The notes: generated by a model not told the origin, from the letters alone. 64,000 bases of DNA from a virus (IMGVR_UViG_3300021387_001477), one strand, 5' to 3'. Shown: positions 1-25,702, counted from the stretch's first letter. Numbers and translations: made by a program.

Positions 1-937
1 TCCTAGCTATCTTTTCAATGTCATCTATGGTTATTCCTTTAGCTCCTGGTATTCTTCCTACAAAAAGCTTAGGACCAGACTCATCCGTAATATCTTCTAT
101 ATAAACCTTTCCGTCCTCCACCAATTTTTTAAACTGTTTCAGCTTTGGAGTAAATATTGCTGTATCTCCCTCGAAAAGTATGCCTTCAGATTTTCCATCA
201 TCTGACATTTTTCTTGAGATCTTATACGAATATATAACCCTGCCTTTACCGGTAGTCCAAAGTCGTTGAAGTTCAGAATTAGCTTTATCAATGAAGATAT
301 CAATATTTGGTTCAAGTAGAGAGGGGTCATTCTTTTTATAAGCAGCAAACATAGATTTTGGTGAGAAGTTCGGGTATTCACTCATAACACCAACACCCAA
401 ACCACTTACCAAACCTCCTTTAAGATACATACATAAAGGAAGTGGAAGAGGTATGTGTATTGGTTCTATTCCACCCTGAGGAGATTCAATCATAGGAACC
501 TCTTTTACAATATCTCCTATGATTCCCCAATATAAGTCACTAAGTCTGTTTTTTGTATACCTAGTTGCTGCATGGGGATTTTCTACTCCATCAATCTGTT
601 TATTTCCAAAGAATCCATGGCCACTAAATATTCCAGAATTAACCAGATTTGCATTAAGTCCCTCACATCCAGTGGTACCATGAGGATGCCACTTAGACAA
701 AGATGCAATCAGATTCATAGTTGGAATATCCTGACCTTTCGGATATTGGAGAGCTGCCCATATTAAGCGTTTATAGGATATTTTCATTCCATCAGCTATA
801 TTTGCAATGGCCCTGAAATTATTTACATATGCTCCAAAATAAGTATAACATTCCTCTGCTATTTGTCCAATTGGTTTTGTTAATTGTTCTGGAGTAGCTT
901 GAGGTAATTCTATTTGTTTTTTCTTCCTAGGCATTAT
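1..937 (-). CDS. DNA topoisomerase II DNA-cleavage subunit (GyrA/ParC/T4 gp52-like), N-terminal part; ORF runs off window start
   Basis: Hand translation of minus strand from ATG at 937-935 gives MPRKKKQIELPQ...RAIANIADGMKISYKRLIWAALQYP...WHPHGTTGCEG (GyrA active-site region and HPHG motif); no stop before position 1, so absent from the complete-ORF track. Confidence 0.8.
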   Translation of the reverse strand, partial: MMPRKKKQIELPQATPEQLTKPIGQIAEECYTYFGAYVNNFRAIANIADGMKISYKRLIWAALQYPKGQDIPTMNLIASLSKWHPHGTTGCEGLNANLVNSGIFSGHGFFGNKQIDGVENPHAATRYTKNRLSDLYWGIIGDIVKEVPMIESPQGGIEPIHIPLPLPLCMYLKGGLVSGLGVGVMSEYPNFSPKSMFAAYKKNDPSLLEPNIDIFIDKANSELQRLWTTGKGRVIYSYKISRKMSDDGKSEGILFEGDTAIFTPKLKQFKKLVEDGKVYIEDITDESGPKLFVGRIPGAKGITIDDIEKIAR

Positions 938-939
938 TA

Positions 940-1187
940 TAAATCTTTAAAATTATATGGATTGCTAAGAATTCCTTTGTCATATAATAGTTTCTTTCTG
1001 GCGTCGATATCTTCTACTAAGTTCATAGCGAAATCAATACCGTCTGTTGTAACTTGAAATAGTCTACGTTTTGATTTATCGTAGAATGCATTATAGACGT
1101 CCTCCCTATCAAGGGAGCCTACCTTGTTGTTTATCTTAGGTCGCCTAATCCTAAGACGAGTTTCCTCCTCATAGTTTCCCATGAGAG
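940..1187 (-). CDS. topoisomerase II large subunit (GyrB/T4 gp39+gp60-like), putative exon 3 (C-terminal tail); 5' boundary approximate
   Basis: ORF 937..1182 (...RRLFQVTTDGIDFAMNLVEDIDARKK) resembles GyrB C-terminal region; preceded by group I intron 3' S-element GAAAATATAGTCT. Confidence 0.45.
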
Positions 1188-1425
1188 CAGACTATATTTT
1201 CATCTTCAGCATTACCTGGTCAGATGTCCTACCTTTCGAACAGTCATTAAGACTTACTGTCCTACTCTCTTTCGAGATAGTCGTTGTAGTTATTTCTAAC
1301 TGCGGATTGTCCCTACTACTTTGCTTGTTACTATTGACTTTATAGTACAAAGTATTTAACAGGAGTTTCCCGCTTTCAATAGGATTATACGGTATATATT
1401 TCTATATACTAGGACTCGCTATGAA
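1188..1425 (-). mobile_element. group I intron 2 of topoisomerase II large-subunit gene (ORF-less); boundaries approximate
   Basis: 5' part GTCCTAGTATATAGAAATATATACCGTATAATCCTATTGAAAGCGGGAAACTCCTG shared with intron 1; 3' part CAACGACTATCTCGAAAGAGAGTAGG ... GAAGATGAAAATATAGTCT (R/S-like P7). Confidence 0.55.
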
Positions 1426-1638
1426 TCCTTTAAATCGTCTAAAATGCTTAGCCGGATTCAGACCTACCGGGAATTGAGTTCCTGGCTGTCTTGGATCGGA
1501 AGGGTAGAAGTATTGTCCACCTTGCTCAAAAATTGGTGATTCGGCTATATAAATTAACCCGAAATCAAGCATAAATCTGGCAAACTTACTGATAGCATAT
1601 AACAACCCGTTTTGGATTGCAAGACCATCTTCATCAGC
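1426..1638 (-). CDS. topoisomerase II large subunit exon 2 (ADEDGLAI...YIAESPIF = GyrB DADVDGSHI...YIAQPPLY block); 3' end approximate
   Basis: Exon1 ends ...IIATD and this exon starts ADEDG, reconstituting the IMTDADxDG motif; exon1 last nt is U and intron last nt is G. Confidence 0.7.
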
Positions 1639-3134
1639 CAATTATGTTTACTTTAGGCCGTCTACTCCTAAAGCGAGAGTATCTCTCCACCTAGTTTCCT
1701 AGCGTGTTCAGACTATATTTTCATCTTCAGCATTACCTGGTCAGATGTCCTATCTTTCGAGTGGCCATAAGACTTGCCGCCCTACTCTCTTTCGAGATAG
1801 TCGTTGAAAGCGCAGTATTATATAAATCTAAATTCTGGTTGAAATTTACTTTTTATTCTGTAGTTTATTGCCTGTCTTTTTAGTCCATAGAATTTTGCAC
1901 ATTCTGTTATAGATCCAAAAATTTTCCCTTCAGCATATACTTGTTTTCTTAGTTTTTTCCTAGTACTTGGGTTATTCATGTTATCAACTCTAGTACATAT
2001 TCTAAGATTTGTTACGCGATTGTTTAATGGGTCAGTGTCTATGTGGTCTACCTGAAGATCGCTGCTCAGAGGCTGATTGTTATTTAGGAATACTTCAGCC
2101 ACTAGTCTATGAACTGGTAGCTTAGAGAGATATTGTCTATATCCGTTTTTCTTGCTTCCAAGAGTTATTCCTCGTTTTCCATTAATTATTCCTAATGGAT
2201 GAACTGAGAAGTTTCCGGAATAGTGTTGTACCCACAGAGAGCTGTCAATAGTCTCACCATCTAGCAGGTAATTTTCTAGTTCAACATCTACTATTTTCCA
2301 ATATCTTCCTCTATACCTCTTCCCGGCCTTAGCTTGATCACATAATGGATGTTTCATTAAATCGCTATTATATAATTCTTCTTCCGTATACGAAACATCA
2401 AACTTTGTAAGTTCTTTATCAAAATATGCTTCATATCTGTGATTTTTTACATATTTTGGTATTGATTTGTTTGAATTGTTTTCCTTAACGGTTACCCACC
2501 TTAGATTACTTAAAGAATAATCTAAAATGTTTCTATTTATATGATCGATTGACGTTTTTGTTTCTGGACAGTCCACTGGGATAAATAACTTTGCTAACAT
2601 TCTATGAATCATCACTTTTTTATCCTTAGTATAAGATCCAGTCGGAATTGAATACATAGGATAACCAGATTTATTAAATAATATGGTTTTGTATTGTGTT
2701 CCTTGTTTCCCCTGCTTTATAAATTCTCCTTTTCGATTAATTAGAAAAGCATTTACAACATTCATCTCAGGGTACAGGTACTTTTTTATATCGAACCACT
2801 CTTGATTAATATCATCATAGAAATAGTCCATCACTTCTCCACTTGTGGTGTTCCAACATAAAACTTCGTTTTTTATTTTTATAACTTGATATCCTACTTG
2901 ATCAACTCCTTCTCTGAATGGGATTGAGTTTTCAATAAGGAATTCTCTAGTTATTGTTTTCATTATGTCATGTCTTATCATAAGTATACTTATTTTAAAT
3001 ACTGCGCTTGCGGATTGTCCTTACTATATGAGTTTTTACTGTCAACCCAGTATCATATATTTAACAGGAGTTCCCCGCTTTTAATAGGATTATACGGTAT
3101 ATATTTCTATATACTAGGACAACTGTTACATTTT
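1639..3134 (-). mobile_element. group I intron 1 of topoisomerase II large-subunit gene, carrying an HNH homing-endonuclease ORF
   Basis: Interrupts IMTDADVDG motif; conserved intron 5' module repeated at 3055-3120 and 1350-1420; 3' R/S-like elements at 1700-1810; splice junction gaU|...G|gct. Confidence 0.7.
1818..2981 (-). CDS. HNH homing endonuclease (intron-encoded), paralog of 10386..11894
   Basis: HNH motif (HRLVAEVF...; DHIDTD...N) plus second HNH-like block HINRNILDYSLSNLRWVTVKEN; lies inside intron. Confidence 0.7.
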   Translation of the reverse strand: MIRHDIMKTITREFLIENSIPFREGVDQVGYQVIKIKNEVLCWNTTSGEVMDYFYDDINQEWFDIKKYLYPEMNVVNAFLINRKGEFIKQGKQGTQYKTILFNKSGYPMYSIPTGSYTKDKKVMIHRMLAKLFIPVDCPETKTSIDHINRNILDYSLSNLRWVTVKENNSNKSIPKYVKNHRYEAYFDKELTKFDVSYTEEELYNSDLMKHPLCDQAKAGKRYRGRYWKIVDVELENYLLDGETIDSSLWVQHYSGNFSVHPLGIINGKRGITLGSKKNGYRQYLSKLPVHRLVAEVFLNNNQPLSSDLQVDHIDTDPLNNRVTNLRICTRVDNMNNPSTRKKLRKQVYAEGKIFGSITECAKFYGLKRQAINYRIKSKFQPEFRFI

Positions 3135-4799
3135 ATCCGTTGCTATAATCACTTTGCCAAATCTTGAATATCGTTTAATTTTTTCATATGCCTCTTCAGG
3201 ACTACTACACCCAGTGGTTACGTTGTTTACGTCAATTCCAAGTCCGATGACTCTGAATATAGTAAACAATTCTCTATTATCCATCATAGAATCAGCTGTA
3301 TCAGAAACTACATTCTTGACACGGCCTCTTAAAGGAATGACAGCCGTATACTTCGTACTCTTTCGTGCAGCCTTTAGAGAACCACCAGGAGATAGACCTT
3401 CAACTATAAATGCCTCACAGTCCCATCTTTCTCCAGGTCCGGCAGTTGCATCACTAAGTCCCTCAATCATCTCGGTCTTAGCTTTGTATACTCCACGACC
3501 AGCCGCTTCATCCATAATCCTCTGAGCTTTATCTGCAGCTCCTAAATTTTTCATAGAGTCCGCTAGATAGTTAAGTCTATCTACATGTGCATCCCAATAA
3601 TCTGGATTCTTCTTAAATATCTTCTGGAATTCTTTTACAATTGGATCAAAGTCTGACTGTTTAACTTTGGCGAAATTCTTTAGCTTCTCTTTTGTTTGGC
3701 TATTGAATACTGTTTCTGCCGCTAAAGCTACAACACACATCTTTAGTCCATTGGTTACGTACCTGTGTTTAATTCCATAGGTTTCACGAAGAGCCCTAAT
3801 GAAACAGTCCTCTACATAATTGATATGAACACCAGAGTCTACTACGAGCGAATTTACAGATCCACAATATTCCTTCGGGCTTAACTCTTCATCGACTCCA
3901 AAAGATACAAACAAGTCAATATATTCATTCATGCTAGTATCTTCTGGAATGATTCTCTTCATAAATTCAAACCCATAGCCAACAAACCCAGACCCCAAGA
4001 GCTCCTTTCCCTCAACTTCAATTCTTGCCTTTCTCTTATAAAATTTTTCTAAGATAAGTAAGAAATATTGAAGATTTTGAATAGGAACTGCCATCTTTTT
4101 GATAACAGCTGGTTCATAGATTTCGGGATCTGGTTTAAAAAGAATTATGGTTGACATACCACTAGGAAGCTGTTTTTCAAACTTTTTACCAAATGCTGCT
4201 TTTTCAAGATCAGCTTTCTTCATGGCTCCCTCATAGTATTTATATCCTTTCTTATACCAAACTATATAAAACAGATCTTTCTTACTCCTAGGTCCTGCAT
4301 TATTCCAGAGGTCATATACTGCTTTTGTAGATTTATCCCAGTTAAGAGGAGTAATTCTAGACATTAGTATATAATCTTCAGAAACTGCATTAACAGCACT
4401 AGAGCCAACACCATTCATTCCAACGGTTGCTACTTTACTGTCTGAAAATTTGGAACCAGAGTGAAGGGTACTTATAGATAGGTCCGCTTGAATAATTGGA
4501 GCTCCATCTTCCCCAATCTCTGATGAAGGGTATATTGGAATACCGCGCCCATCATCTGCAACCATAGCATAACCGTTCATATATCTATCAATGATTATAT
4601 TTTGGGCAGAATGATAGCACTCATCAACAGAGTTATCAATTATTTCTCTCAAAAGTGTATCACAGCTGTCAGTTCCCGAAAGATACATTCCGATACGCTG
4701 ACGTATAGCCTGTGGAAACTTTAAGAGTTTAATCTCATCTGGATTTTCTAAATTATTAAATTCATCATTCATATTATTATAAATTAAATTAATATTCAA
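3135..4799 (-). CDS. topoisomerase II large subunit exon 1: GHKL ATPase + TOPRIM (GyrB/T4 gp39-like)
   Basis: MNGVGSSAVNAVS (GyrB GLHGVG region), EGLSPGGS (TOPRIM EGDSAGGS), ends ...IIATD at splice site; in-frame stop 2 codons into intron. Confidence 0.85.
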
Positions 4800-4879
4800 A
4801 AATCTGAGAGAACACTTTTAATATTCCCTCAGATATAAGAAAATAACCTTCTTGGAAGAGCAAAAAAAAAGAATAGGGA

Positions 4880-5473
4880 TTATACTCCCCATTCTTCTGA
4901 TAATTCATATAAATCTACGACACTATCCCAACTCCCTCCGATTAGGCTTGGAGAGTGTGTTGCTATAATAACTTGGCCTGGATATTTACCTTCTGCCAAT
5001 ATCTTTTGAATGATATTTTGTACTCCTATATGTACATGAGTTTCTGGAAGATCAAAAAGCAATACTCCAGGAAAACAAGATAGATAATGAAGTACAAGAA
5101 GGGCATTATATTCACCAGGAGATGGAGGAAATCCCGTCTTCTTCTCAAGTGCTCCATTCTTTTCTATCCACTTATGCTCTAGGTAATCGTCATCAAAAGC
5201 CTCAGGAAATTTATTTAAAATATCTGAGGAAATTGGAACATTTTTATATGGATCTAAGAAATCACAGTAAAAGAATTTCTCTGGCTTATTATTTTTCCAT
5301 GTAAGCTCTAATTCCATTCCCTCGTCTGGACCATATGCTAAGGACCGAAGTAGGTGAGTTTTTCCATATCCATTCGGCCCAGTTACGAATGTCACTTTTC
5401 CTGGGAGCTTTATGTTTAGCTCTTTATCACCATAAATTAATGATTTCTTTATCTTTATCTTTTCTAGTTTCAT
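4880..5473 (-). CDS. small P-loop ATPase (ABC/RecF-like, AAA_21-type)
   Basis: Walker A GPNGYGKTHLL, Walker B LLFDLPE, ATHSP. Confidence 0.55.
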   Translation of the reverse strand: MKLEKIKIKKSLIYGDKELNIKLPGKVTFVTGPNGYGKTHLLRSLAYGPDEGMELELTWKNNKPEKFFYCDFLDPYKNVPISSDILNKFPEAFDDDYLEHKWIEKNGALEKKTGFPPSPGEYNALLVLHYLSCFPGVLLFDLPETHVHIGVQNIIQKILAEGKYPGQVIIATHSPSLIGGSWDSVVDLYELSEEWGV

Positions 5474-5670: not shown

Positions 5671-6171
5671 TCAGGGGTTTTGAATTTCCTGGCACTCTTT
5701 ATATCCATATCCTTTTCTTAGAATATTGAGTGGGATTTGCTTTAAATATCCCACAAAATATATTATAGAAAATATTTCAAATATCTGAGGAATTTCTACT
5801 AGCGGTTTCCATTTTGAACCCTCCCCAAGCTTTGCAGAAAAATCTAAAAGGCTTCGTTCTATTCGTTCACAGTTGGTCCGAGTATTGTATATATACTTAC
5901 TATCGGTTGTTATATGTGGCACACTTTCCATTTCATATTCGAGTTTTATACACCGCTCTTCTACTAGTTCTGTAACTAAATAGAATTCTCCGGCTCCATT
6001 TTTAAAGTCTTCTAAAATATCTGGGCATATTTGGAGAATAGAGGGTAAGTACAGTAGATCAATTTCTATAAGATATCCCTCAGTATACTCTACTATCCCT
6101 AGAGAGATTTTAAATGCCCACATATCTACTTTGTTAGAGATTATTCTTAATGATCTTATTTTAATCATCAC
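5671..6171 (-). CDS. hypothetical protein
   Basis: 166-aa ORF, typical AT-rich codon usage. Confidence 0.5.
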   Translation of the reverse strand: MMIKIRSLRIISNKVDMWAFKISLGIVEYTEGYLIEIDLLYLPSILQICPDILEDFKNGAGEFYLVTELVEERCIKLEYEMESVPHITTDSKYIYNTRTNCERIERSLLDFSAKLGEGSKWKPLVEIPQIFEIFSIIYFVGYLKQIPLNILRKGYGYKECQEIQNP

Positions 6172-6192
6172 TTATAAGAAAAGAAAGGGGAC

Positions 6193-6402
6193 CTATAGTC
6201 CCCTGGTTATGTCATAGGTATTCCATGGAGTTCGAATTATTCTCCATGAGTCCCTATAACTATTAATAACACCGATAACAACACTTGATCTTTCTTTTCT
6301 TGGAATTAATAATACTCCAAGAAGCCCTATTGTATATTCCAGTAAAAAACATACCGGCCACATAATTATACAATAGGCAAGTTTAAAAATATTTTTTATC
6401 AT
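6193..6402 (-). CDS. small membrane protein (start corrected to internal Met; tracked ORF start overlaps promoter motif)
   Basis: ORF 6193..6432 begins ATGCCTTATATATG which is the promoter core; hydrophobic 69-aa product from MIKNIF. Confidence 0.45.
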   Translation of the reverse strand: MIKNIFKLAYCIIMWPVCFLLEYTIGLLGVLLIPRKERSSVVIGVINSYRDSWRIIRTPWNTYDITRGL

Positions 6403-6418
6403 AGCTTTGTTGTTTATA

Positions 6419-6429
6419 CATATATAAGG
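6419..6429 (-). promoter_or_regulatory. conserved phage promoter core CCTTATATATG (minus orientation)
   Basis: Motif plus upstream TTTTTTTTCCGTCTCATA element; preceded by hairpin terminator of upstream gene. Confidence 0.55.
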
Positions 6430-6638
6430 CAATGAAAAGATATGAGACGGAAAAAAAAATAAGAGGGCTTATATAATACCCTCCTCAAACATAAATAAAG
6501 CCTTTCATAGATAAAAAAAAAGACTTCTCGCTGGATCACTCGTTTATCACAGGCACTTCTCTCTTCATCATAATCTCTCTCCTCTGTCCTGCTTCGGTTC
6601 CATTCCACACGAAGTCTTATAATATTTATATTTCTTTA

Positions 6639-6649
6639 CATATATAAGG
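6639..6649 (-). promoter_or_regulatory. conserved promoter core (minus orientation)
   Basis: ACATATATAAGGG + GACGGAAAAAAAAA + hairpin AGGGCTAACGTAGCCCT (terminator-promoter cassette). Confidence 0.5.
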
Positions 6650-6692
6650 GTTTGAAGGAATTATAGACGGAAAAAAAAAGAAAGGGCTAACG

Positions 6693-6863
6693 TAGCCCTA
6701 ATCTTTTAAGCTCTAAATATAAATTCAAGCCCACTTCTAAATCTATCACTTGATCATAGTCAGGACAGGTACAACAACCGACCATTCCTTTATAGTCTGG
6801 CATCCCATCCTCAAAAATTTTTTCTGTAGGGTTTATTCTGCTTTTGTAATATCCACAGTCCAT
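6693..6863 (-). CDS. small Cys-rich protein (56 aa, below ORF-track cutoff)
   Basis: Hand translation MDCGYYKSRINPTEKIFEDGMPDYKGMVGCCTCPDYDQVIDLEV...; follows promoter at ~6945. Confidence 0.35.
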
Positions 6864-7249
6864 ACTATTTTGGTTTTAGTGTGTGTTAAACAAAAAACGT
6901 AAGAGTCTTAACCAAATTTTTCTCTCTAGGTATTCTCTTACAATAATAAGGGTTTGGGGGATTATGAGCGGTAAAAAATCTAGCACCATATAAATAATAA
7001 AAAATAGAAAAGATCGTAGTTGTCTTCTCTATTTCTTTCTTCGTAAAAAATAACCACCGCCTATACTTTTGGCAGTGGTTTAAGTTTCTACTCCTTATGG
7101 TACACTCACTTTTTCTTACGTATAAGATATTCCAGCATGTTAACTGGGATAAGCTGCTTGGCCAATAATACAGCTTTCTTATTATAAGGTGGTTCCATCT
7201 CTCAGGAAGTAGAGTTAGTTTTGTTAAATTTTCGAAAGATTTTTTATTA

Positions 7250-7260
7250 CATATATAAGG
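7250..7260 (-). promoter_or_regulatory. conserved promoter core (minus orientation) for 6886-7240 small gene(s)
   Basis: ACATATATAAGGG + GACGGAATAAAAAAA + hairpin. Confidence 0.45.
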
Positions 7261-7298
7261 GTTTAAAGGAATTATAGACGGAATAAAAAAAGAGGACA

Positions 7299-7850
7299 TC
7301 AATCCTCTTTCCTCTCAATTTTAAGACCCCAAGGAGATTCTTTACTTGGAACTAACAGAGACGTCTTCTTTTCAGAAAATTTAAGTCCCTTACTTGCAAG
7401 CTGATTCTTAAGGAATTCGAAGGTCTTCTTTCCAATTAAATAATAACCGCAGTTAGACCAGTTATCAACGAACATTTTATATTGTTCCTCTGTTAAGCTT
7501 AATAGGTCAGATACAGTACGAATCCCAGTATCCCCTCCTCTAAGAAAGTTTAACAATCTCGCTCTGGTATTCTTATCTCCTCTAGTTACTAGAGGCAAGT
7601 TGAGAAGAAAAACATCAACTCCCCTAGTCTTCCAATACTCTTGTTCTGCTTCAGATATATTTTCCGGATTCAAGATATCATTAAACTTATCACTTTGTTT
7701 CACTCTCTCCTCTATCTCAGATATCATTACAAGTTTGGTTTGTAGTTTTCTTAAGAACTCTTCGTCCAGCTTTTTTCTCTTATCCAAGAACCTATCTTCT
7801 AGCTCTTGTCTCTTTTTTAAATAGTCTTCTAAAATCTCTTTTTCGTTCAT
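7299..7850 (-). CDS. hypothetical coiled-coil protein
   Basis: 183-aa ORF with promoter CTATATATAAGG at 7872-7882. Confidence 0.5.
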   Translation of the reverse strand: MNEKEILEDYLKKRQELEDRFLDKRKKLDEEFLRKLQTKLVMISEIEERVKQSDKFNDILNPENISEAEQEYWKTRGVDVFLLNLPLVTRGDKNTRARLLNFLRGGDTGIRTVSDLLSLTEEQYKMFVDNWSNCGYYLIGKKTFEFLKNQLASKGLKFSEKKTSLLVPSKESPWGLKIERKED

Positions 7851-8028
7851 ATCATTTTGTTTTAATTGTTTCTATATATAAGGCAATAGGTAGATCTGGG
7901 ACGGTAAAGAGAGAGAGCCCACCAATTGACTCCCCCCTAGGCGAGGAGTCTATTCCACTGCCTAATCAAATCGGTAATGTGACTCTTTAGTAAAGACTCC
8001 CGGGCTTTGTTTTTTTTTTCTTAAAATT

Positions 8029-8039
8029 CTTATATATAG
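8029..8039 (+). promoter_or_regulatory. conserved promoter core (plus orientation)
   Basis: CTTATATATAG 21 nt upstream of ATG 8060, no SD. Confidence 0.5.
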
Positions 8040-8059
8040 AAACTAAAGTTAAAATAACA

Positions 8060-8674
8060 ATGATGACGCAGAAAGAAGCTATAGATGAATTGATCCTAAA
8101 GGTTGATTATCTCTTAGACGAAATCGAACAACATGAAAAATTTGAAGACGAAGAACAAGGAGAGTTTCAAATCATGGCCTACGAAGAAAACAAAAAGAGG
8201 GTTGAAGCTTATCTTGTAACTCTAGGTGCACTGGATCCATCCTTATCTACTATTGAAGGATTGCGAGCTAGATGTAGTCAGGTTAAAGAGGAGAGATATG
8301 GTTCTTCTGATGCCTTTAAACAACCGGAACCCAATGATATAGAGAAGGAGCTGGCTGAAATTCTAACTCCATGGTATAAGGAGGAGGTTAAGAATAATGG
8401 CGGCTACGGAACACAGTTGGATTTAGAGACTGATGAAAACGCAATCCTCGCCAAAATTTATATGGAGAAAGGAGAAAAGCAGGTGGTTATTGGTAATGAA
8501 CCGGATGACGTAGACGAGCCGTGCGATTCTGATACTTTTGCATTCTATCCGTATCGAGGGAGAGTCCAGGTGATCTATAATGAATATGCTGACGGAGACT
8601 TTTATAGCTATCCGATAGAGTTCCAAGAAAAGGCGCTTGAAATTATTAAGAAAAAATTAAAAGAGGGGAAATAA
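8060..8674 (+). CDS. hypothetical acidic protein
   Basis: 204-aa ORF. Confidence 0.5.
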   Translation: MMTQKEAIDELILKVDYLLDEIEQHEKFEDEEQGEFQIMAYEENKKRVEAYLVTLGALDPSLSTIEGLRARCSQVKEERYGSSDAFKQPEPNDIEKELAEILTPWYKEEVKNNGGYGTQLDLETDENAILAKIYMEKGEKQVVIGNEPDDVDEPCDSDTFAFYPYRGRVQVIYNEYADGDFYSYPIEFQEKALEIIKKKLKEGK

Positions 8675-8742
8675 TCCTCTCTTTCTTTTGTCTTCTGGTA
8701 AAAAAAAGAAGACTGTATGATTCAATCTTCTTTGTTTCTAAT

Positions 8743-9363
8743 TTACATCCAAGAGTAAGTTCCCGTTTCTCTACGTTTATAATTGTAGAAAGTCTGAGCA
8801 CATCTATCCATATCACCAGTTCTGTAATTATTTAATCTATTCCAATCCCATGCATTAGATTGAATAAAGTACATGATGGCGGCATTTCGTTTTATACCAA
8901 TATCATTGATGTCAGTGAATCTGTCGTCATACCATCTCCTTTCTAAGTAATGATATAAAAGACCTGATACACGATGTATTCCATGACCATATAGTGCTCC
9001 CTTTATAGACATATCAAATTCAGAGATATCCCATATACTTACTTCAGGATCTACCCGAAGTGGCCAATTATGCCTCAGCATGTTGAAATATTGATTATAA
9101 TGATAATTATATAAGTTCTCAAGACGCTGCTCTTCTTTTCTCTGCTCCTCTTGAATTGCTCTTTGTCGTTCGGCTTCTATTCTTTCAGCCTCTCTTCTCT
9201 TTCTCCTTTCTTCGCGCTCTTTTTCCTTCTTTTCCATCCATGCGCAAAGTTTTGGATTCTTTTTTAGTATTGATCTTCCTGATTTTGTTGCTCCAAGAAA
9301 AACCAAAGTCCCAGATACTAAAATAGTAGTACCAAGACTAATTATTTTTGTTGACGTTTTCAT
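8743..9363 (-). CDS. hypothetical membrane-anchored/secreted coiled-coil protein
   Basis: N-terminal hydrophobic segment, EKEREERRKRREAERIEAERQR coiled coil; promoter 9381-9391. Confidence 0.5.
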   Translation of the reverse strand: MKTSTKIISLGTTILVSGTLVFLGATKSGRSILKKNPKLCAWMEKKEKEREERRKRREAERIEAERQRAIQEEQRKEEQRLENLYNYHYNQYFNMLRHNWPLRVDPEVSIWDISEFDMSIKGALYGHGIHRVSGLLYHYLERRWYDDRFTDINDIGIKRNAAIMYFIQSNAWDWNRLNNYRTGDMDRCAQTFYNYKRRETGTYSWM

Positions 9364-9428
9364 AACTTTTTTTCTTTAATCATATATAAGGCAATGGAAA
9401 GATATAAGACGGAAAAAAGAGGTGGATT

Positions 9429-10055
9429 CTAAAGTTCCACCCCATCAAAGAATTTACGAATCTTTTTAGTCTCTAAAGTTCTAGTATCGATGTAGTACAT
9501 CTCTTTAAGTACACTACCAAAATCAATAGGACAATCATAATCATAGTTATTCTTCTCTACTAATAGAATAACCTCATGAGCTGAAACATCAATGTAAACT
9601 TTATGTCCACGATAACTCTTTCCAGTAAAAGAGATTGGATATATTGCAACTGGACAATAGGAGTTATCTGATGCCCTAGTTACTATGAGATTATCAACGA
9701 TCGTAAAGTTCGCATAAATGAGACGACTAACTTTGAGGTTGCCTCTTTCGTTTTTACATATATAAAAATGATACCCGAATACTGAGTCGTGTTCAAACAC
9801 AAATACGGATTCTGGAAATCTCTTTCTCAGAATCTTAAGGTTTTCCTGAGTAATCTTACCTTCAATTTTTAGATAAACTTCCTCTCTGGCATTAAAACTA
9901 ATAAGAGTTGATGCACTAAAGATTATTGATCTTTTATTAAACGACACTCCGCAACTTCTTTCTGATTTCTTTCCTTCTCTTGTCAAGGGAACTAGTTTTA
10001 CACCACCACAGTTATCCCTCTCTTCGACAAGTTTTTCTTTTTTATAAATTTCCAT
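9429..10055 (-). CDS. hypothetical protein
   Basis: 208-aa ORF; promoter CATATATAAGG at 10125-10135. Confidence 0.5.
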   Translation of the reverse strand: MEIYKKEKLVEERDNCGGVKLVPLTREGKKSERSCGVSFNKRSIIFSASTLISFNAREEVYLKIEGKITQENLKILRKRFPESVFVFEHDSVFGYHFYICKNERGNLKVSRLIYANFTIVDNLIVTRASDNSYCPVAIYPISFTGKSYRGHKVYIDVSAHEVILLVEKNNYDYDCPIDFGSVLKEMYYIDTRTLETKKIRKFFDGVEL

Positions 10056-10385: not shown

Positions 10386-11894
10386 ATGGTTTGTAATGAA
10401 CTAAAAGACAAATTACCTGAAGGATGGAGAGAAAAATTTGTACATAGAGACTGTGACCAAGCTAACTATGAATTCGCTATGTTTGAGATTGATGGGAAGA
10501 ATAAGATACTAGTCCGAAACCCAGATACCGACGACATAATGGAATACTACTATGATGATTTTGATGAATGGATTGAGATAGATAAAAAAGTTATGAGATC
10601 TCTAATAAATAAAGACACAGAGTCCAAAGTTTATATTAGTCCTGATGGAAAGTATATAAAACATATTGGAAGAAAGAAAAGAGAACTATCTTCAAAATTA
10701 GTAGATAGGTGCCCGTACCCAATAATATCCATATGTAGTTGTCAAGTAAAAACCCACAGACTTATAGCTTTTATATTTATTCCAAACCCATATCCAGAAA
10801 AATATAATATAGTTAATCATAAAGATCTAAGCAGAACAAACTTTAGCAAAGAGAACTTAGAATGGTGTGATGCTAAATGGAATGCAAAAAGAGAGAATCA
10901 AAAGAAATATATTCCTGGAACAGTTTATGAAAGACTATCAGATGGGAGAAGATTTTCTTCTGCTGATTTGGCCGAAGAGTATAAGAATAAGCAATCAAGC
11001 TCGGCAGTTTTGGGAGCAATTAGCCGCGGAAAAACTTATCATGGGAGTACATGGAGAGTAATAGACCTTTCATTAGAAGATTATTTATCACGACACCCGC
11101 TGACAGATAGTTGGATCCAACACCCTACACTAAAAGATGTTTATGTAAATAGCTGTGGAGTACTTAGGATAAAAGATAAAATAGTTGTTGGAAATAAACA
11201 CGAGTGTTTATATTATTCAATAAGTATTGAAGGGAAACTATATAAGACCCACAGAATAATAATGGAAGCCATTCTTAATAGAGAGCTCCTAAACACAGAG
11301 GTAGTTGATCATATTATTCCTGTTTCTAAAGATGACATAAACAATGAAATATCTAATCTTAGAGTAGGAACGCAAAAAGATAACCTAAATAATGAACATA
11401 CACGTATTAAGTGGATTAAGAAGGGATCGCTTAAAAAATTTTCATTATTTGGTGACTTTGTAGAAGAATATAAAACTATAGATGATGCGCTTAAGGCGAA
11501 TAGTGAGATAAAAAGTAAAGTCTTGCTTATTAGGGCAACTGAGCTAGGCGCTGGAGCACTTATTTCTGCTGGAAACTTTCTCTGGTGTTTTGAAGGAGAG
11601 GAGGATAGAGTAAAAGATAGACTAGATTTTATATACTACAAAACGCCAGTAAACTCCTTAACAATAAAACCAGAATCCGCCTCAATAAATCTCAAAGATC
11701 TATCCAAAGAAATCCCAATTAATAAACTCAACAAAGTACTGAACACAGGATTTCCCTTAAATGGATACGTTTACCAGCGGGGAAAACCTAATGATATCCT
11801 CATTGATAAATCTAATACAGCATTGGAGAAGAAACGAGATAATATATCATGGAGAGAGTTTACAGGAAGAAATAAAAATAGAGAAGACAACTAA
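10386..11894 (+). CDS. free-standing HNH homing-type endonuclease (paralog of 1818..2981)
   Basis: Shared N-terminal region (YYYDDFDEW vs YFYDDINQEW) and HNH blocks (THRLIAFIF...N; THRIIMEAIL...DHIIP...N). Confidence 0.65.
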   Translation: MVCNELKDKLPEGWREKFVHRDCDQANYEFAMFEIDGKNKILVRNPDTDDIMEYYYDDFDEWIEIDKKVMRSLINKDTESKVYISPDGKYIKHIGRKKRELSSKLVDRCPYPIISICSCQVKTHRLIAFIFIPNPYPEKYNIVNHKDLSRTNFSKENLEWCDAKWNAKRENQKKYIPGTVYERLSDGRRFSSADLAEEYKNKQSSSAVLGAISRGKTYHGSTWRVIDLSLEDYLSRHPLTDSWIQHPTLKDVYVNSCGVLRIKDKIVVGNKHECLYYSISIEGKLYKTHRIIMEAILNRELLNTEVVDHIIPVSKDDINNEISNLRVGTQKDNLNNEHTRIKWIKKGSLKKFSLFGDFVEEYKTIDDALKANSEIKSKVLLIRATELGAGALISAGNFLWCFEGEEDRVKDRLDFIYYKTPVNSLTIKPESASINLKDLSKEIPINKLNKVLNTGFPLNGYVYQRGKPNDILIDKSNTALEKKRDNISWREFTGRNKNREDN

Positions 11895-11912: not shown

Positions 11913-12323
11913 TTATCTAATTCTTCTAAACCTAACTACGTACTTGCTTTCATCTCTCCTAACTTGGGCCCCTTTTTCTCGAATGAATCTAAGAATTGGA
12001 TGGGTAATCCAGTTAGGAACTAAATCCTCTCGTTTAGTATCACACTCTACTTTAAGATCTTTGCAATTCATAATCTTATCATACATTCTTGTCATTGCAT
12101 ATGCACTCCCCTCAAATTCGATTGTATTTTCATCAATCATTTTCATAGGCATAGCACATTCATATGCATCCCCAGCTAATAGATCAAATAATAACTTAAT
12201 CTTTGGCCCATAACTCGCACAATATGACGTGTAATACTGATCATAGAACTTTCTAATCTCAAATATCTTAGAAGTTGGTACATAGTTTGTATTTGAATCC
12301 GTTATTACTTTATGTTTCCACAA
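11913..12323 (-). CDS. DNA polymerase A, terminal exon (motif C region and C-terminus)
   Basis: CASYGPKIKLLFDLLAGDAYECAMPMKMIDE ~ T7 gp5 LQSAGALICKLW...AYMAWVHDE; ECDTKREDLVPNWITHP ~ T7 DTEGKMGPNWAICH; preceded by intron S-element and G. Confidence 0.65.
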   Translation of the reverse strand: MWKHKVITDSNTNYVPTSKIFEIRKFYDQYYTSYCASYGPKIKLLFDLLAGDAYECAMPMKMIDENTIEFEGSAYAMTRMYDKIMNCKDLKVECDTKREDLVPNWITHPILRFIREKGAQVRRDESKYVVRFRRIR

Positions 12324-12640
12324 AGACTAGACTATATCATTATCCATATTTCAGGATAGATCGCGCTTCGAGAGCAGGACTTTCACCTGATCTCTACTTC
12401 CTTTCAGAATAGTCGTTACACCTTCCATTTCTGGCTTGGCTCGGGATTAGCATGCATTTCTGTTTAGCTTTCCCCGATAGCAAGATTTCTCTCACACCCT
12501 ATATTTCTAGGTTCACGATCTTTTGCACTCTAGAATTACCCCTAGAGGCCACAATTTTACTTATGGACTACAATAATTGGTTGGAGTGGTTGTTTCCAGC
12601 CCTCTTGTATTGATTCACGTATATTATTAAAGAATCCTGA
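12324..12640 (-). mobile_element. group I intron in polA (canonical core); 5' boundary approximate
   Basis: CGGGGAAAGCTAAACAGAAATGCATGCTAATCCCGAGCCAAGCC ... GTGTAACGACTATTCTGAAAGG ... AATGATATAGTCTAGTC ... G| then exon. Confidence 0.55.
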
Positions 12641-12669: not shown

Positions 12670-12700
12670 GTTATTACTTTATGTTTCCACAAAGACTAGA
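12670..12700 (-). repeat. duplicate of the 31-nt intron-3'-tail/exon-start sequence CTAGTCTTTGTGGAAACATAAAGTAATAACG (other copy 12298-12328)
   Basis: Exact-looking repeat directly after a second intron S-element but not followed by coding sequence. Confidence 0.5.
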
Positions 12701-12925
12701 TCATATCATTATCCACATTCATGGATAGGCTGCGCTTCGGAATACAGAATTTCACTGTAAACCTACTCCTTTCGGATGATCGTTACACTTTCTCTATCTC
12801 TAGAGCTTAGCACGGGATTGGCATATTATTACTAACTTAGCTTTCCCCGTTAGCAAGATCTCTCACACCTAAGATTTCTTAGTTCACAGCCTGTTTCATA
12901 TAGGATTACTCCTATAAGCTACAAT
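12700..12925 (-). mobile_element. group I intron in polA (canonical core); boundaries approximate
   Basis: CGGGGAAAGCTAAGTTAGTAATAATATGCCAATCCCGTGCTAAGC ... GTGTAACGATCATCCGAAAGG ... AATGATATGATCTAGTC. Confidence 0.5.
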
Positions 12926-13209
12926 TTTATTTATAGGAAGATTCACGCCTAATCTTTCACACCTCGCCTTTAGATTATTCTTCTCTCTGGAATTTGCTTT
13001 TAGCCACAGATCATATTCTTTAATTTTTAATTTATCGCCCATTATTGAATTAATATATCCATCATGGCTAAATGGATACTGTTGTTGAGAGGCCACATAC
13101 TCTCTCAATTTAGGGAAACTTGTATAAAGTCCCTGTATAATATCATCAGCTTCCTCTTCTGAGCAAAATAGTCTTTCAGCCAATGATTTCTTTCCTAGAC
13201 CATAAAGAA
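12896..13209 (-). CDS. DNA polymerase A internal exon (palm: end of motif B to QG region); true 3' splice end near 12926
   Basis: SLAERLFCSEEEADDIIQGLYTSFPKLREYV ~ Klenow [31 protein letters not shown]; ...ARCERLGVNLPIN ~ AAERAAINAPMQG; naive join to micro-exon is out of frame by one nt (see findings). Confidence 0.6.
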
Positions 13210-13849: not shown

Positions 13850-14143
13850 CTTCTCTCTGGTTCTCTTATGAACTCCTGTATATTTCTATACAGATCAGAC
13901 TATATCTTCACCTCAATACCGAGGGCTTACCGTTTCCACTACACGAACTTTGTAGTGTACTCTCTTTCGAGATAGTCGTTGGGGTTTTGATACAGAGCTA
14001 GTTAGTCATACTAGCCTTAATTTTATAAATATTTATCAAAACCTGCTGATTGGCCTTATTCTTTGATTTCTTACGGAAGTGACTAAATCTTCTCGTACCA
14101 AAGACTTAACGGGCGTTTCCAGCATTTAGTAAGTTTATTTTTC
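13850..14143 (-). mobile_element. group I intron (family C-like) in polA; boundaries approximate
   Basis: CAACGACTATCTCGAAAGAGAGTACAC ... GAAGATATAGTCTGATCTGTATAGAAATATACAGGAGTTCATAAGAGAACC tail (tail duplicated at 14530-14570). Confidence 0.45.
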
Positions 14144-14144
14144 T

Positions 14145-14241
14145 TGGGATCACTCCCAAGCGATACTTAAATCTAATATCTTCGCCTTTATTAAACTTAT
14201 CAATCAAGTCGGGATCTCCGCTTGCGAAACCTGCAGCTTTT
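14145..14241 (-). CDS. polA exon fragment between motifs A and B (KAAGFASGDPDLIDKFNKGEDIRFKYRLGV...)
   Basis: Follows G of intron B3; resembles Klenow LLTAFAEGKDIH region; ends at 20-nt hairpin repeat CTTGGGAGTGATCCCAAG. Confidence 0.4.
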
Positions 14242-14509: not shown

Positions 14510-14741
<232 letters not shown>

Positions 14742-17423
14742 TTAGTTTTTCTTGGGATCACTCCCAAGTGACACCAATAATTTATTTTCAATGTCAAAAT
14801 AAGTTTCAATAAAGTCTTCATCTACTATATTCCCATTCTCGTCAATATGATATGGCGTTCGAACACAATCTTTAAAATCTGCATGACTAACCAAGACATG
14901 GAACGCACTAGACCACCTCTTTGAACTCTTTGTGTTGACCTCATAATGACAAAAGCATTTATGTACTGCTCCTGGCTCATTAGGGTCAGCTTCACGAATA
15001 GGAATATGTTTTTCGTCCTCAATTACCCACTTTCCCTCTTTCAGCATTCCATCAATATAGGTCGATAGAACCTTTGAATATTTTTTGAAGAGCAGATAAT
15101 TGATGACCATTTTTCTCATAAAATAGAATCTGTTATCAAAGTCAGATTCATTGAAGATCTTTCCATAATCTTCATATTGATCAGAAACATACTTAAAGAA
15201 CTGTTCCTGAGCGATATATCCATTAAAGTTACTCCACACCTCTTTTACCTGATCACATCCTAAGTCATTATAGAATTGATCAAACAGGACATATACTTTT
15301 TCTGGATAACTGGTTTGCCCTACTGGAGTTCCTTGATAAAGTTTTGTATAGTTCTCTCCAAAATGAGCAAATCCATCTTCAACTGTTTTTATACCGAGTT
15401 GTTCATAATATTTTTCTGCGCCTGGAAGTTGCTGCGCACTTTCAAACATTGCAGCGAGATATGCAGACTCGGTAGGATACAGTTGAGCAAATTCCAAACA
15501 GATCTCATCATTTTCAATGGGGGACTTACACTTAAAGAAGTTATCCGATACATAATCTGAATAACTAATTAAATCCCATTTTTGTCCAAATGCATAGATC
15601 TCTTGAGGAATGTTTTGTATGTCATTAAGTTGATTCTTTGAGACTTTCATTAACTCATTGAACGCTCTTTCATAATATAGATACTTCTCAAGCTCTATGT
15701 GTTTGTCATTTATCTTTATTTTATCTAGTCCGATTATAGGAATTAGTTTATCTCCCAAGACCTGTTGGATCTTCTTCTTTCCGCCAATTCCTGAATCAAT
15801 CTTAGACTTCAATACTTTCTGACCTGTTTTCTTATAGAGTTTTATCATTCCTACCTCTTCCATTGCTTCTCTTAGGACTTTCATAAAATTGGTAGCAAAG
15901 TCTGGACCATACTTCATTAATAATTGGCCCTCGTTTATACCAAGTTCATAAGCATCCATAGTATCAACATTAGAAGTCAGAAGATACTTAGCTATTTCAG
16001 CCGGATTTCCATTAAAGAAGGTATTATCATGCAGCAGTTTCTTGGCAATATCAGAATAATTATCTATATTTGCCATCTTTTTCTTGTGCTTATCCATCTT
16101 TATTTTACACCTAGCTTCACTACAAAACGTAATGCTCCACGCAATCATCTCTTTCGACTTCTTTTCATACTCCAATCTAAATGGCTCGTCAATATATAGG
16201 CCACAATTATGAAGTCTGGCGCCCAATCTTGCATTATCCATAAAGGTTCTAATACAATCTTCAGAGAATTTATCTTTCTCTACCAGATGTATCATAAGAG
16301 TATAGAAAGCGTCAAGATTACAATAATACCCTAATATTTCTGATGGAACACACATAAATGAACTCTTGTCCCAGTATTCAAGTATTAAAGCTTCAAATTC
16401 ATTTATATAACTTGGGTATCTTGCGCATATCTCAGCCCATTCCGGAGTTGTTTTAAAATCAGAGGGAGTAATTTTTAGAACTTTCTTCTTATCTTTCTTA
16501 AGTTTCCCTACTTCTTCATAAAACATGCTTTCAACAAGATCTGAGATTCTGTCAAACTCGGTATCCCAGACAGTAGCCTGAAGTATCATTTGGGCTGACC
16601 ACTTTAAGGAATATTTCTTTAAGTGATTTCCCTCAATGACATTATAAACAGACGCATCTATAAGATTATATAGGTCTACTCCAAACATTCTATGAGATAC
16701 GGCCTGTTCATATTGCATATTATAAGTTACAAGATGACTCTGCCTATGATTCAAAAAATCTCCAAATCTTTTACATATCATTCCGTATTGTTCAGGACTA
16801 CATGTATGTCTAAGATCTGTAAAACTTATAAATCCTCCGAAGTTTTTTGTACACAGTGATGCCCCAGATATATCAAACCATACATCCAAAGCCATACCAG
16901 ATGCCTCGAAGTCAAAGCCTAGGTCCTCAGTCTCTGGAAGATTACAAAGCCAGTCTAAAAATTTCATTGCTCCAGTAAAATCATGAATAACTTTACTTTG
17001 GAACCAGGAAAAATCAACGGGCTGTGTAAATCCTGGAGACATAAAATCTCTAATTATGTCTGGAGAAGGAGGATCTAGAACTACCTTAACAAAAGCTCCG
17101 CCCTCTATACTTAACCTTCGAAGTTTGGACACATCGAAGTAATTCTCTGACCTAACCCCAAAGTGATAGAACTGGTTTAGATATCGATAAGGTTCTGCCC
17201 CCACCAACATAACAGCATCACTTGGGCCTAATGTCAGAAACTCTCTTTTTGCATCATCGGACATAGATTCAATATTCTCAACCGTAAAGATCTGAGATGA
17301 ATCCAGCCCTATTCCATAATAATCCACCACGTAATTTGGTGTTTCTTTAGCTGAAATTAATACAAATCGTTTGTTCATAAATCTAAATATTAATATACCT
17401 TTGAGCCGATATCTTACATACAC
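14742..17423 (-). CDS. DNA polymerase A exon 1 (N-terminal region incl. 3'-5' exonuclease-like domain, no polymerase motifs A/B/C)
   Basis: 893-aa ORF; GFDFEASGMALDVWFD exo-like block; last codons overlap the 20-nt hairpin repeat so true 5' splice site may lie slightly upstream of the stop. Confidence 0.65.
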   Translation of the reverse strand: MYVRYRLKGILIFRFMNKRFVLISAKETPNYVVDYYGIGLDSSQIFTVENIESMSDDAKREFLTLGPSDAVMLVGAEPYRYLNQFYHFGVRSENYFDVSKLRRLSIEGGAFVKVVLDPPSPDIIRDFMSPGFTQPVDFSWFQSKVIHDFTGAMKFLDWLCNLPETEDLGFDFEASGMALDVWFDISGASLCTKNFGGFISFTDLRHTCSPEQYGMICKRFGDFLNHRQSHLVTYNMQYEQAVSHRMFGVDLYNLIDASVYNVIEGNHLKKYSLKWSAQMILQATVWDTEFDRISDLVESMFYEEVGKLKKDKKKVLKITPSDFKTTPEWAEICARYPSYINEFEALILEYWDKSSFMCVPSEILGYYCNLDAFYTLMIHLVEKDKFSEDCIRTFMDNARLGARLHNCGLYIDEPFRLEYEKKSKEMIAWSITFCSEARCKIKMDKHKKKMANIDNYSDIAKKLLHDNTFFNGNPAEIAKYLLTSNVDTMDAYELGINEGQLLMKYGPDFATNFMKVLREAMEEVGMIKLYKKTGQKVLKSKIDSGIGGKKKIQQVLGDKLIPIIGLDKIKINDKHIELEKYLYYERAFNELMKVSKNQLNDIQNIPQEIYAFGQKWDLISYSDYVSDNFFKCKSPIENDEICLEFAQLYPTESAYLAAMFESAQQLPGAEKYYEQLGIKTVEDGFAHFGENYTKLYQGTPVGQTSYPEKVYVLFDQFYNDLGCDQVKEVWSNFNGYIAQEQFFKYVSDQYEDYGKIFNESDFDNRFYFMRKMVINYLLFKKYSKVLSTYIDGMLKEGKWVIEDEKHIPIREADPNEPGAVHKCFCHYEVNTKSSKRWSSAFHVLVSHADFKDCVRTPYHIDENGNIVDEDFIETYFDIENKLLVSLGSDPKKN

Positions 17424-19805: not shown

Positions 19806-19879
19806 GTAGCGGGGATCAGGATCGAACTGATGACCTCAACGGGTTATGAGCCCGGAATGCTACCACTGCACTACCCCGC
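19806..19879 (-). tRNA. tRNA-Met (CAU); some non-canonical pairs (acceptor/anticodon stem), possibly initiator-like GGG/CCC anticodon stem
   Basis: Cloverleaf on minus strand: anticodon loop CUCAUAA, T-arm ATCAG/TTCGATC/CTGAT. Confidence 0.55.
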
Positions 19880-19883
19880 GATA

Positions 19884-19958
19884 TTGGTACTCGGAAGGGG
19901 AATTGAACCCCTATTGTGGGAATGAAAATCCCAAGTACTAGCCGTTATACGATCCGAG
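19884..19958 (-). tRNA. tRNA-Glu (UUC), CCA encoded
   Basis: Acceptor GCTCGGA/TCCGAGT, anticodon stem TGGGA/TCCCA loop UUUUCAU, T-arm AGGGG/TTCAATT/CCCCT. Confidence 0.75.
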
Positions 19959-19962
19959 CATT

Positions 19963-24544: not shown

Positions 24545-24617
24545 GTCCCAGTAGGCAAGTGATTAAGCCAAGAATCTGCAAAATTCTTAATCGTTGGTTT
24601 GAATCCAGCCTGGGACT
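24545..24617 (+). tRNA. tRNA-Cys (GCA)
   Basis: Acceptor GTCCCAG/CTGGGAC, anticodon stem AGAAT/ATTCT loop CUGCAAA, T-arm GTTGG/TTTGAAT/CCAGC. Confidence 0.7.
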
Positions 24618-24762
24618 CTTTCAAAATAAATGACAACAAACACATTATCGACAACATATGAAAAGAATTTATTTTTTCGGCTAGGTACTAGGTATCGAAG
24701 CCGTGTGTGTCGAGATTAGTTTTACGCCTCCATAATTTTAGATTTAGTAAACTTTCAAAATC

Positions 24763-25537: not shown

Positions 25538-25593
25538 CGCCCTGAACACCCTTTCCTTGGTTGTGGGGACCTAGAGTCAAACAACCAGGCTAT

Positions 25594-25665: not shown

Positions 25666-25702
25666 CAAAGGACCTAAAATCCTTATAAAAGAAAATAAAT
25701 AA

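Follow-up and report, generated by a model that had tools for sequence, protein, structure and literature searches.

Two predicted group I introns, one with a tandem-HNH endonuclease gene, divide a topoisomerase II large-subunit gene of a jumbo gut phage

Introduction

How could a phage make an active type II topoisomerase from a gene whose reading frame stops in the middle of the enzyme's metal-site motif? This question is raised by IMGVR_UViG_3300021387_001477, a viral stretch of 64,000 nt that we refer to in its entirety as the window, which carries a GyrB/gp39-like topoisomerase II large-subunit gene on its minus strand. Called mechanically, the open reading frame (ORF) for the N-terminal part of the protein runs from a TTG at 4799 to position 3126 and closes with ...GKVIIATD-K-M-stop, that is, inside the DxDxDG motif of the TOPRIM domain. 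A preliminary description, drawn from the sequence alone, read the locus as a three-exon gene with two group I introns, the first of which contains an HNH homing endonuclease gene. Our analysis arrives at the same layout from uninterrupted alleles, from alignment of the joined exons to GyrB, and from base-pair covariation in the insertions, and we consider it very probable that this gene consists of three exons split by two group I introns.

Uninterrupted alleles define the exon junctions

A search with the joined protein returned many relatives on large phage contigs (up to 432 kb), including the uninterrupted P0001 (678 aa, 92% identity) and P0002–P0007. In the protein alignment, intact relatives are continuous across IIATD-ADEDG and RRFKG-L-GSLD, and other relatives end exactly at the window junctions (IATDK-stop, RFKGLTK-stop) or a few codons off. 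Two intact alleles, L001 and L015 (the latter on a 416-kb contig), served as references and share about 80% nucleotide and 92% amino-acid identity with the window gene. In blastn, window positions 4846..3135, 1638..1426, and 1119..3 correspond to L001 positions 5926..7638, 7639..7851, and 7855..8974, respectively, and L015 gives the identical contiguity pattern at both junctions. Because L001 and L015 are contiguous there, the first insertion is exactly 3134..1639 (1496 nt), the same interval that had been proposed beforehand; the ORF and the intact alleles also bear out the earlier view that the exon 1 frame ends two codons past ...IIATD and that ADEDG resumes at 1638.

Exon 1 (3135..4772; like all features of the gene, on the minus strand) encodes the GHKL ATPase, the transducer, and the first part of TOPRIM, and it ends in ...IIATD with a U (3135) as its last base. 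Its ORF does extend to 4799, as first described, but homologues and public gene calls (548 aa) place the start at ATG 4772, which is likely the true start of the topoisomerase. Intron 1 (1639..3134) falls between the Asp and Ala codons of IIATD/ADEDG and ends in G (1639). At the second junction the DNA reads AAAGGAT, followed by an insertion that closes in ...AACAAGG and then by TAGGCTCC; removal of the insertion yields AAA GGA TTA GGC TCC, which encodes the KGLGS seen in the intact alleles; the junction falls within the Leu codon (T/TA). A 1-nt ambiguity concerning this T was settled by the rule of a terminal G, which sets intron 2 at 1424..1122 and exon 3 at 1121..937. Exon 2 (1425..1638, 214 nt) supplies the remainder of TOPRIM, ADEDGLAIQNG...RRFKG, together with the first base of the Leu codon, and its last base is U (1425). 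Intron 2 (1122..1424, 303 nt) lacks an ORF and ends in G (1122), and exon 3 (937..1121) encodes the GyrB C-terminal tail, (L)GSLDREDVYNAFYD...NPYNFKDL, with its stop codon TAA at 939..937. Exon 3 had been described as 937..1187, which puts its start 66 nt too far upstream: positions 1187..1122 belong to the P9/P9.x region of intron 2, and the ATG at 1182 is fortuitous.

The spliced coding sequence would be 2037 nt, identical in length to both intact alleles, with the predicted ligated junctions ATAGCAACGGAT/GCTGATGAAGAT between exons 1 and 2 and GATTTAAAGGAT/TAGGCTCCCTTG between exons 2 and 3. Joining restores both IIATD/ADEDG (the TOPRIM DxDxDG motif) and RFKG-L-GSLD. On the joined protein Pfam identifies HATPase_c, DNA_gyraseB, Toprim (4.3e-7), and DNA_gyraseB_C, of which Toprim and GyrB_C are missing from the separate pieces. 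HMMER aligns joined residues 350–672 with residues 355–666 of Mycobacterium GyrB as one domain that spans both junctions, so the joined exons do give the colinear GyrB alignment anticipated for them; against GyrB sequences in the Protein Data Bank (PDB), the joined protein scores an E-value of 1e-35. The resulting product is a colinear array of GHKL ATPase, transducer, TOPRIM (E...DxDxDG), and C-terminal tail (KGLG motif) of the GyrB or T4 gp39+gp60 type. Current annotation of the locus comprises a 548-aa fragment and stray ORFs, including an 81-aa "gene" lying partly within intron 2, where the correct product would have 678 aa.

Exon 2 is 94% identical to L001 in amino acids and 80% in nucleotides, exon 3 is 87% and about 79% identical, respectively, and no indels occur in any of the three exons relative to the intact alleles. 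This combination of far higher amino-acid than nucleotide identity with a lack of indels argues that the whole gene is under purifying selection, which would require the insertions to be removed; without splicing, the protein would lose both the DxDxDG motif and the tail. At least 80% of the joined protein is covered by 214 phage records, with a best protein identity of 28.7%, and megablast against the INPHARED phages gave no match; by these comparisons, the window phage has no close cultured relative. The window is 100% identical to the ENA contig ERZ12302816 NODE_16 (317,399 bp), and the same arrangement is found in the independent Logan assembly SRR873601. We also considered an assembly artefact, which is rejected by the identical sequence in independently assembled contigs.

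A predicted IA-type group I fold in both insertions

Mapping of the exon pieces in six related contigs yielded nine ORF-less intron cores from five insertion sites, which were aligned for folding. With boundaries taken from intact alleles and reading frame, every one of the nine has U as the last base of its 5' exon and G as its own last base, and the group I splice rule to which the preliminary description had appealed thus holds throughout. RNAalifold recovered P2, P3, P4, P5, P5a, P7.1, P7.2, P8, P9, and P9.x from the nine introns, with compensatory changes at 43 of 65 pairs. When P7 was added as a pseudoknot, 96.2% of the alignment cells across the fold were able to pair, as against 35–47% in controls slid by 1–3 columns. 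The fold that includes P7 shows compensatory (double) changes at 45 of 70 pairs, among them pairs of P7 and P1, and none of 500 shuffles reached any of the observed measures. The core helices P3-P4-P5-P6 and P7-P3'-P8 occur in canonical order with the P3/P7 pseudoknot; P6 was found in each intron sequence and is too variable to align.

Two of these covariations concern the helices of the reaction itself. The guanosine-binding helix P7 changes from GACUAU/AUAGUC to GAUCAU/AUGAUC, and the P1 guide tracks its exon from site to site (GGAU/GUCC, GGGU/GCCC, AGAU/GUCU), with an invariant G at alignment column 17 opposite the exon U. In the window, the P1 wobbles are U3135.G3120 for intron 1 and U1425.G1415 for intron 2. 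Furthermore, the hairpins P7.1 and P7.2 (columns 178–189 and 193–221) lie between the P7 5' strand and the P3 3' strand, and both contain compensatory changes. Hairpins in this position are the mark of subgroup IA, to which the window introns are provisionally assigned. We conclude that the two insertions are genuine group I introns of the IA type, and we infer that they splice.

The 5' ribozyme half of intron 1 (3002..3134) contains the guide GUCC (3120..3117), whose G3120 pairs with exon U3135, followed by P2 (3115..3096), the P3 5' strand (3089..3083), P4 (3078..3074/3014..3010), P5 (3069..3066/3021..3018), P5a (3059..3025), and the P6 5' strand AGCGCAG (3008..3002). The 3' half (1639..1815; nhmmer, 139 bits) continues with the P6 3' strand CUGCGCU (1815..1809), P7 (1802..1798/1715..1711), P7.1 (1797..1786), P7.2 (1782..1759), the P3 3' strand (1754..1748), P8 (1747..1722), P9 (1706..1688), and P9.x (1674..1650), up to the terminal G1639. 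Intron 2 presents the guide GUCCU (1415..1411), P2 (1410..1391), P3 (1384..1378/1233..1227), P4 (1373..1369/1306..1302), P5, P5a, P6 (about 1300..1286), P7 (1282..1278/1194..1190), P7.1, P7.2, P8 (1226..1201), P9 (1185..1168), and P9.x (1157..1133); folded alone, its minimum free energy structure gives the same helices (z = -3.97). All core helices are intact in both introns, and a 4-bp P10 was read by hand in intron 1 only.

Intron 1 encodes a tandem-HNH protein

The loop closed by the 7-bp P6 stem of intron 1 (3008..3002/1815..1809) contains a 387-aa ORF (1818..2981). The HNH assignment made for this ORF at the outset is confirmed by Pfam HNH_3, which matches at 2e-16 in two stretches, with domains at about residues 79–187 and 243–377. 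PHROGs 59/959/99 ("HNH endonuclease") match with E-values down to 3.6e-38, both DH...N...N motifs are legible, and a weak I-TevI-type match marks a C-terminal I-TevI-like/helix-turn-helix DNA-binding module. The ORF is full length, and the identical protein occurs in several public samples. A PDB sequence search with this protein gave no match, tblastn against phages returned half-length matches to single-HNH endonucleases only, with no MobA among them, and no record of the cultured-phage collection matches at least 80% of the tandem-HNH protein, since its matches cover one half or the other. Tandem HNH domains could in principle cut both DNA strands, unlike single-HNH nicking enzymes.

Intron content varies among related alleles

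A single 90%-identity protein cluster, which includes the window exon 1 product, mixes intact alleles of 678 aa with interrupted alleles of 548–561 aa. Since intron presence differs within so narrow a cluster, mobility of the introns is indicated. L001 and L015 lack both introns, and L003 has intron 2 only. In L009 and L010 the arrangement of the window is reversed: the intron at site 1 lacks an ORF, and it is intron 2 that contains the HNH homologue (36% identity, full length). L002 has an HNH ORF at site 1 (45% identity). The architecture itself persists across diverged genomes.

Insertion sites are unusually dense in the gene of this clade: the motif region has four intron sites inside 16 nt (after ATD, DAD, ADED, and ADEDG plus 1 nt). 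Further sites in the gene are the intron at RFKG/L and an intein just ahead of the catalytic Glu. In L002 (ERZ1667847, a contig of 201 kb), the topoisomerase gene comprises four exons, one of which is a 16-nt micro-exon, GCAGATGAAGATGGGT (ADEDG plus 1 nt), at 9196–9211, flanked by the HNH-bearing intron (7633–9195) and by a second, 308-nt group I intron (9212–9519). L007 has an intron at 6645–7929, after CDAD and two codons from site 1, that contains a 101-aa ORF and a 198-aa ORF instead of an HNH gene; the latter has a weak match to Tn7 TnsA (PD-(D/E)XK), which suggests, when set against the HNH genes elsewhere, that different endonuclease families occupy this intron lineage. Inteins (Pfam Intein_splicing) are present in P0008, P0014, P0023, P0034, and P0036 directly before the catalytic TOPRIM Glu (...FL/C...N/CEGLS, joined residue 466), and some of these intein-bearing alleles also stop at intron sites.

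The two window introns are each other's closest relatives, with 74% identity overall. The shared 5' module pointed out in the preliminary description is evident as 93% identity across the guide-P5 segment (3134–3060 vs 1424–1350), and the P8-P7' segment (1747–1711 vs 1226–1190) reaches 98%, whereas elsewhere the introns are only 52–70% identical. Compared with the introns that occupy the corresponding site elsewhere, each shows only 57–67% identity; at its P9/3' end, by contrast, intron 2 looks like its site-2 orthologues. Such a mosaic pattern suggests that the two neighbours recently recombined or underwent gene conversion. Exon identity near the insertion sites gave no clear rise, as a co-conversion footprint would, in comparisons with L001 and L015 at about 80% nucleotide identity. 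Together with the L002 micro-exon between two ribozymes, the mosaic pair offers small, testable cases of interplay between introns.

Proposed mechanism and alternatives

We propose that the three exons and both introns would be transcribed as one pre-mRNA, in which each intron would fold as an IA-type ribozyme with a U.G pair in P1 at the 5' splice site, P2 to P9, P7.1/P7.2, and a 3' P9.x hairpin. Each would then excise itself by two-step, guanosine-initiated transesterification. Ligation to ...ACGGAU/GCUGAU... and ...AAAGGAU/UAGGCU... would generate a 2037-nt ORF whose product, a GyrB-like subunit of 678 aa, has both the TOPRIM DxDxDG motif and the C-terminal tail intact. This subunit would be expected to pair with the product of the downstream GyrA/gp52-like gene as a phage topoisomerase II. 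The partner gene (1..934, minus strand; Pfam DNA_topoisoIV, 1.2e-12) does leave the window, as had been recognized; it starts at ATG 934..932 and encodes 448 aa on the full contig. In L003 and L004, this GyrA-like gene contains an intein with an HNH_3 domain (848 aa vs about 450; L003 8353–10899). During co-infection with relatives, the tandem-HNH enzyme would cut their intron-less alleles close to the TOPRIM-coding sequence, and recombinational repair would copy intron 1 into them, which constitutes homing. Intron 2 is an ORF-less relative, whose orthologue in other genomes carries the homologous HNH gene.

Several points weigh against this proposal. The covariance search recommended with the original description does detect both introns in an E-value scan with Rfam Intron_gpI (RF00028), intron 2 at 45.2 bits (E 2.1e-9) and intron 1 at 24.1 bits (E 0.0046) over its 3' half only, but both scores, although statistically significant, lie under the curated gathering score of 50 bits. 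At that threshold, Rfam reports no intron in 1..4799 and none in the loci of seven relatives. Hand inspection gave no convincing P10 pairing for intron 2, and an exact look-up of the 678-aa spliced protein in the public protein collection did not find it. The splicing of these two introns and the activity and target site of the endonuclease are predictions, and chance start codons (TTG 1641 ahead of exon 2 and ATG 1182 within intron 2) permit separate translation of the fragments. As to the Rfam scores, the intron 1 match is partial because the 1.2-kb ORF splits the intron, and we do not take the gathering-threshold miss as absence because the E-value scan, the intact alleles, and the covariation all reveal introns. 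The generic model is insensitive to this intron lineage and to ORF-split introns, and its gathering cutoff is operational, not a defining property of the group I class. Screening at this threshold misses the lineage entirely, and intron counts for jumbo gut phages are probably underestimates.

One alternative is a truly split gene, comparable to T4 genes 39 and 60, in which the insertions would never leave the RNA and a working enzyme would form non-covalently from the separate products of exon 1, exon 2 (started at TTG 1641), and exon 3 (started at ATG 1182). Both downstream pieces do have ORFs with start codons, gene callers report the 81-aa ORF there, and the Toprim-split topoisomerase of T4 works as separate polypeptides (10.1101/2022.08.31.505936). 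We nevertheless regard a split gene as very unlikely here, as it leaves unexplained the covarying group I fold, the U/G rule in nine of nine introns, and the covariation of guide and exon. It would sever the DxDxDG metal site at its D/A boundary, and separate translation cannot account for the 16-nt micro-exon of L002. Moreover, the fragments would acquire junk extensions (KM-stop, FIASPSI-stop, and MGNYEEETRLRIRRPKINNKV-) that are unconserved in relatives, whereas T4-type splits have conserved extensions.

Rfam scores under the gathering threshold, along with the loss of an ORF from intron 2, could alternatively mean that the introns are decayed, non-splicing relics and that this topoisomerase copy is a pseudogene. 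Such decay is highly improbable in view of three in-frame exons without indels against the intact alleles, amino-acid identity far above nucleotide identity, core helices that are intact in both introns, an architecture that persists in diverged genomes, and an HNH ORF that is full length and identical in several samples. Finally, ribosomes might bypass the gaps during translation, or the gaps might be excised from the protein as inteins, given that T4 bypasses 50 nt in the same motif and that relatives of this gene carry inteins. The gaps in question, however, measure 303 and 1496 nt and contain many stops in all frames, their RNA structure indicates ribozymes, neither contains a Hint/intein domain, and the relatives' inteins sit at another site, before the TOPRIM Glu. 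We assign this reading virtually no weight, as the sequence effectively refutes it. Self-splicing group I introns therefore remain by far the best account of both insertions.

Other introns and genes in the window

The window contains six group I introns in its 64 kb. In addition to the topoisomerase pair, four introns on the minus strand score above the Rfam gathering score (53.6–78.9 bits), at 12308–12572, 12677–12942, 13876–14185, and 14564–14800. They split a family A DNA polymerase gene, of which the 893-aa first piece lies at 17423..14742 and a further piece, at 13183..12896, matches Pfam DNA_pol_A. These introns are only distantly related to those of the topoisomerase gene. A profile of the topoisomerase intron 3' halves has just two strong copies in the window, with weak matches to the four introns at 12.3–14.8 kb that pass the Rfam cutoff, and these matches speak for the group I assignment of the topoisomerase pair. 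Adjoining the end of the split polymerase gene, on the opposite (plus) strand, is a 502-aa HNH_3 ORF (10386–11894) with 30% identity over nearly its full length to the intron 1 endonuclease, and it is apparently a stand-alone member of that tandem-HNH family.

Just upstream of the topoisomerase gene, a 197-aa ORF (4880–5473, minus strand) matches only the two ends of the AAA_21/AAA_15 profiles (ABC/OLD-type ATPases), namely the Walker A region and a C-terminal motif. Relatives conserve this ORF (14 members in its cluster), which looks like a minimal or collapsed ATPase. Six tRNA genes form two clusters, at 19807–19959 (minus) and 24545–25857 (plus), and the relatives' loci also have tRNA arrays near the topoisomerase genes (for example, L009 2353–3026).

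Relation to known systems

Group I introns that encode homing endonucleases are textbook residents of phage replication genes, as exemplified by T4 td, nrdB, and nrdD and by the SPO1 polymerase gene. The window introns resemble the IA2 introns of T-even phages (td, nrdB, nrdD/sunY) in that a ribozyme occupies an essential DNA-metabolism gene of a virulent phage, in the P7.1/P7.2 hairpins, in their patchy presence, and in an endonuclease ORF looped out of a peripheral helix, which is P6 in window intron 1. They differ in the host gene and enzyme, topoisomerase II and tandem HNH_3 as opposed to td/nrd and GIY-YIG, and, unlike the T-even introns, they comprise two related introns 214 nt apart with an extra 3' P9.x hairpin, a conserved tail, and a weak match to the generic Rfam model (45 bits). 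The SPO1 and SP82 DNA polymerase introns with the HNH nicking enzymes I-HmuI and I-HmuII likewise combine a group I intron with an HNH enzyme in a phage replication gene; each of those enzymes has a single HNH domain, compared with the two HNH_3 domains in tandem of the window enzyme.

T4 also interrupts this gene. T4 gp39 aligns with the joined protein to residue 520 and gp60 from residue 547, which places the 39/60 split about 10–35 codons upstream of intron site 1. The 50-nt T4 bypass takes off at Gly46 of MTDADHDG/L, in the same DxDxDG motif and 5 codons downstream of site 1, and its insert is 1 nt from the second intron site of L002. These positions refine the initial remark that T4 splits the gene at roughly this place. 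In T-even phages the insertion site of the HNH element MobA is invariably in Toprim, and its bypass cassette guards the target (10.1101/2022.08.31.505936). Hence gene, domain, motif, and the presence of an HNH homing element are common to both systems, but T4 relies on separate polypeptides and ribosome hopping, whereas the window gene would rely on RNA splicing. At E<=1e-5, the window HNH protein has no detectable similarity to T-even Mob proteins; a direct link of the window endonuclease to MobA is unsupported by this comparison, and convergence on a highly conserved stretch of DNA is the best reading of their common location.

A more ambitious interpretation would make the DxDxDG codons a homing hot spot across lineages, with the T4 hop cassette and the jumbo-phage introns as interchangeable "immunity inserts", each breaking up an HNH target at practically one and the same nucleotide; in its strongest form, the bypass cassette would descend from, or have replaced, an intron-type insert at this site. 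A related idea is that the tandem-HNH enzyme would act as an interference weapon between co-infecting jumbo phages. We judge this interpretation very unlikely. The cluster of insertion sites that overlaps the T4 hop site nonetheless provides a handle on why the motif attracts homing endonucleases and on the puzzling origin of the bypass cassette.

The Jug jumbo gut phages (360–402 kb) are reported to have about 18.5 group I introns per genome, as well as HNH endonucleases and inteins, and metatranscriptomes confirmed the splicing of 37 of their 76 predicted group I introns (PMC12880540). In the available part of that paper's text, the intron hosts named are terL, nrdD, and DNA polymerase, "DNA topoisomerase IV" is given only as a core gene, and introns of the topoisomerase large subunit are not mentioned. 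The window phage resembles the Jug phages (PMC12880540 / PMC12363816), and may belong with them, in its traits: gut jumbo contigs (317–416 kb here), many introns, HNH genes and inteins that break up essential genes, and a split DNA polymerase gene.

Our search of an incomplete literature library found no paper on a group I intron in a phage type II topoisomerase or gyrase gene. In GenBank, however, the topoisomerase IIA large-subunit gene of Vibrio phage 150E35-1 is split by an unannotated group I intron (OX241562.1, about 145723–146067; L012 2933–3277) with an Rfam score of 81.4 bits, and the record labels the pieces "DNA topoisomerase, type IIA" and "toprim domain-containing protein, partial". 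This intron is also inside the TOPRIM of a GyrB-like gene, but it occupies another site (after ...AILPL, in the PLRGK motif), belongs to another lineage, and has no HNH_3-type endonuclease ORF. The topoisomerase host gene is therefore not unique to the window, and the claim of a new way of breaking the same gene was overstated when set beside the classic phage introns, the intron-rich Jug phages (PMC12880540), and the Vibrio phage intron. The window introns are instead a well-supported but fairly ordinary case of a familiar kind of selfish element, and the phage group was already known to be rich in introns. They add type II topoisomerase to the phage genes that group I introns have colonised, and the moderate interest of the locus resides in the clustering of elements at the TOPRIM metal site, the overlap with the T4 hop site, the tandem-HNH endonuclease, the mosaic intron pair, and the micro-exon of L002.

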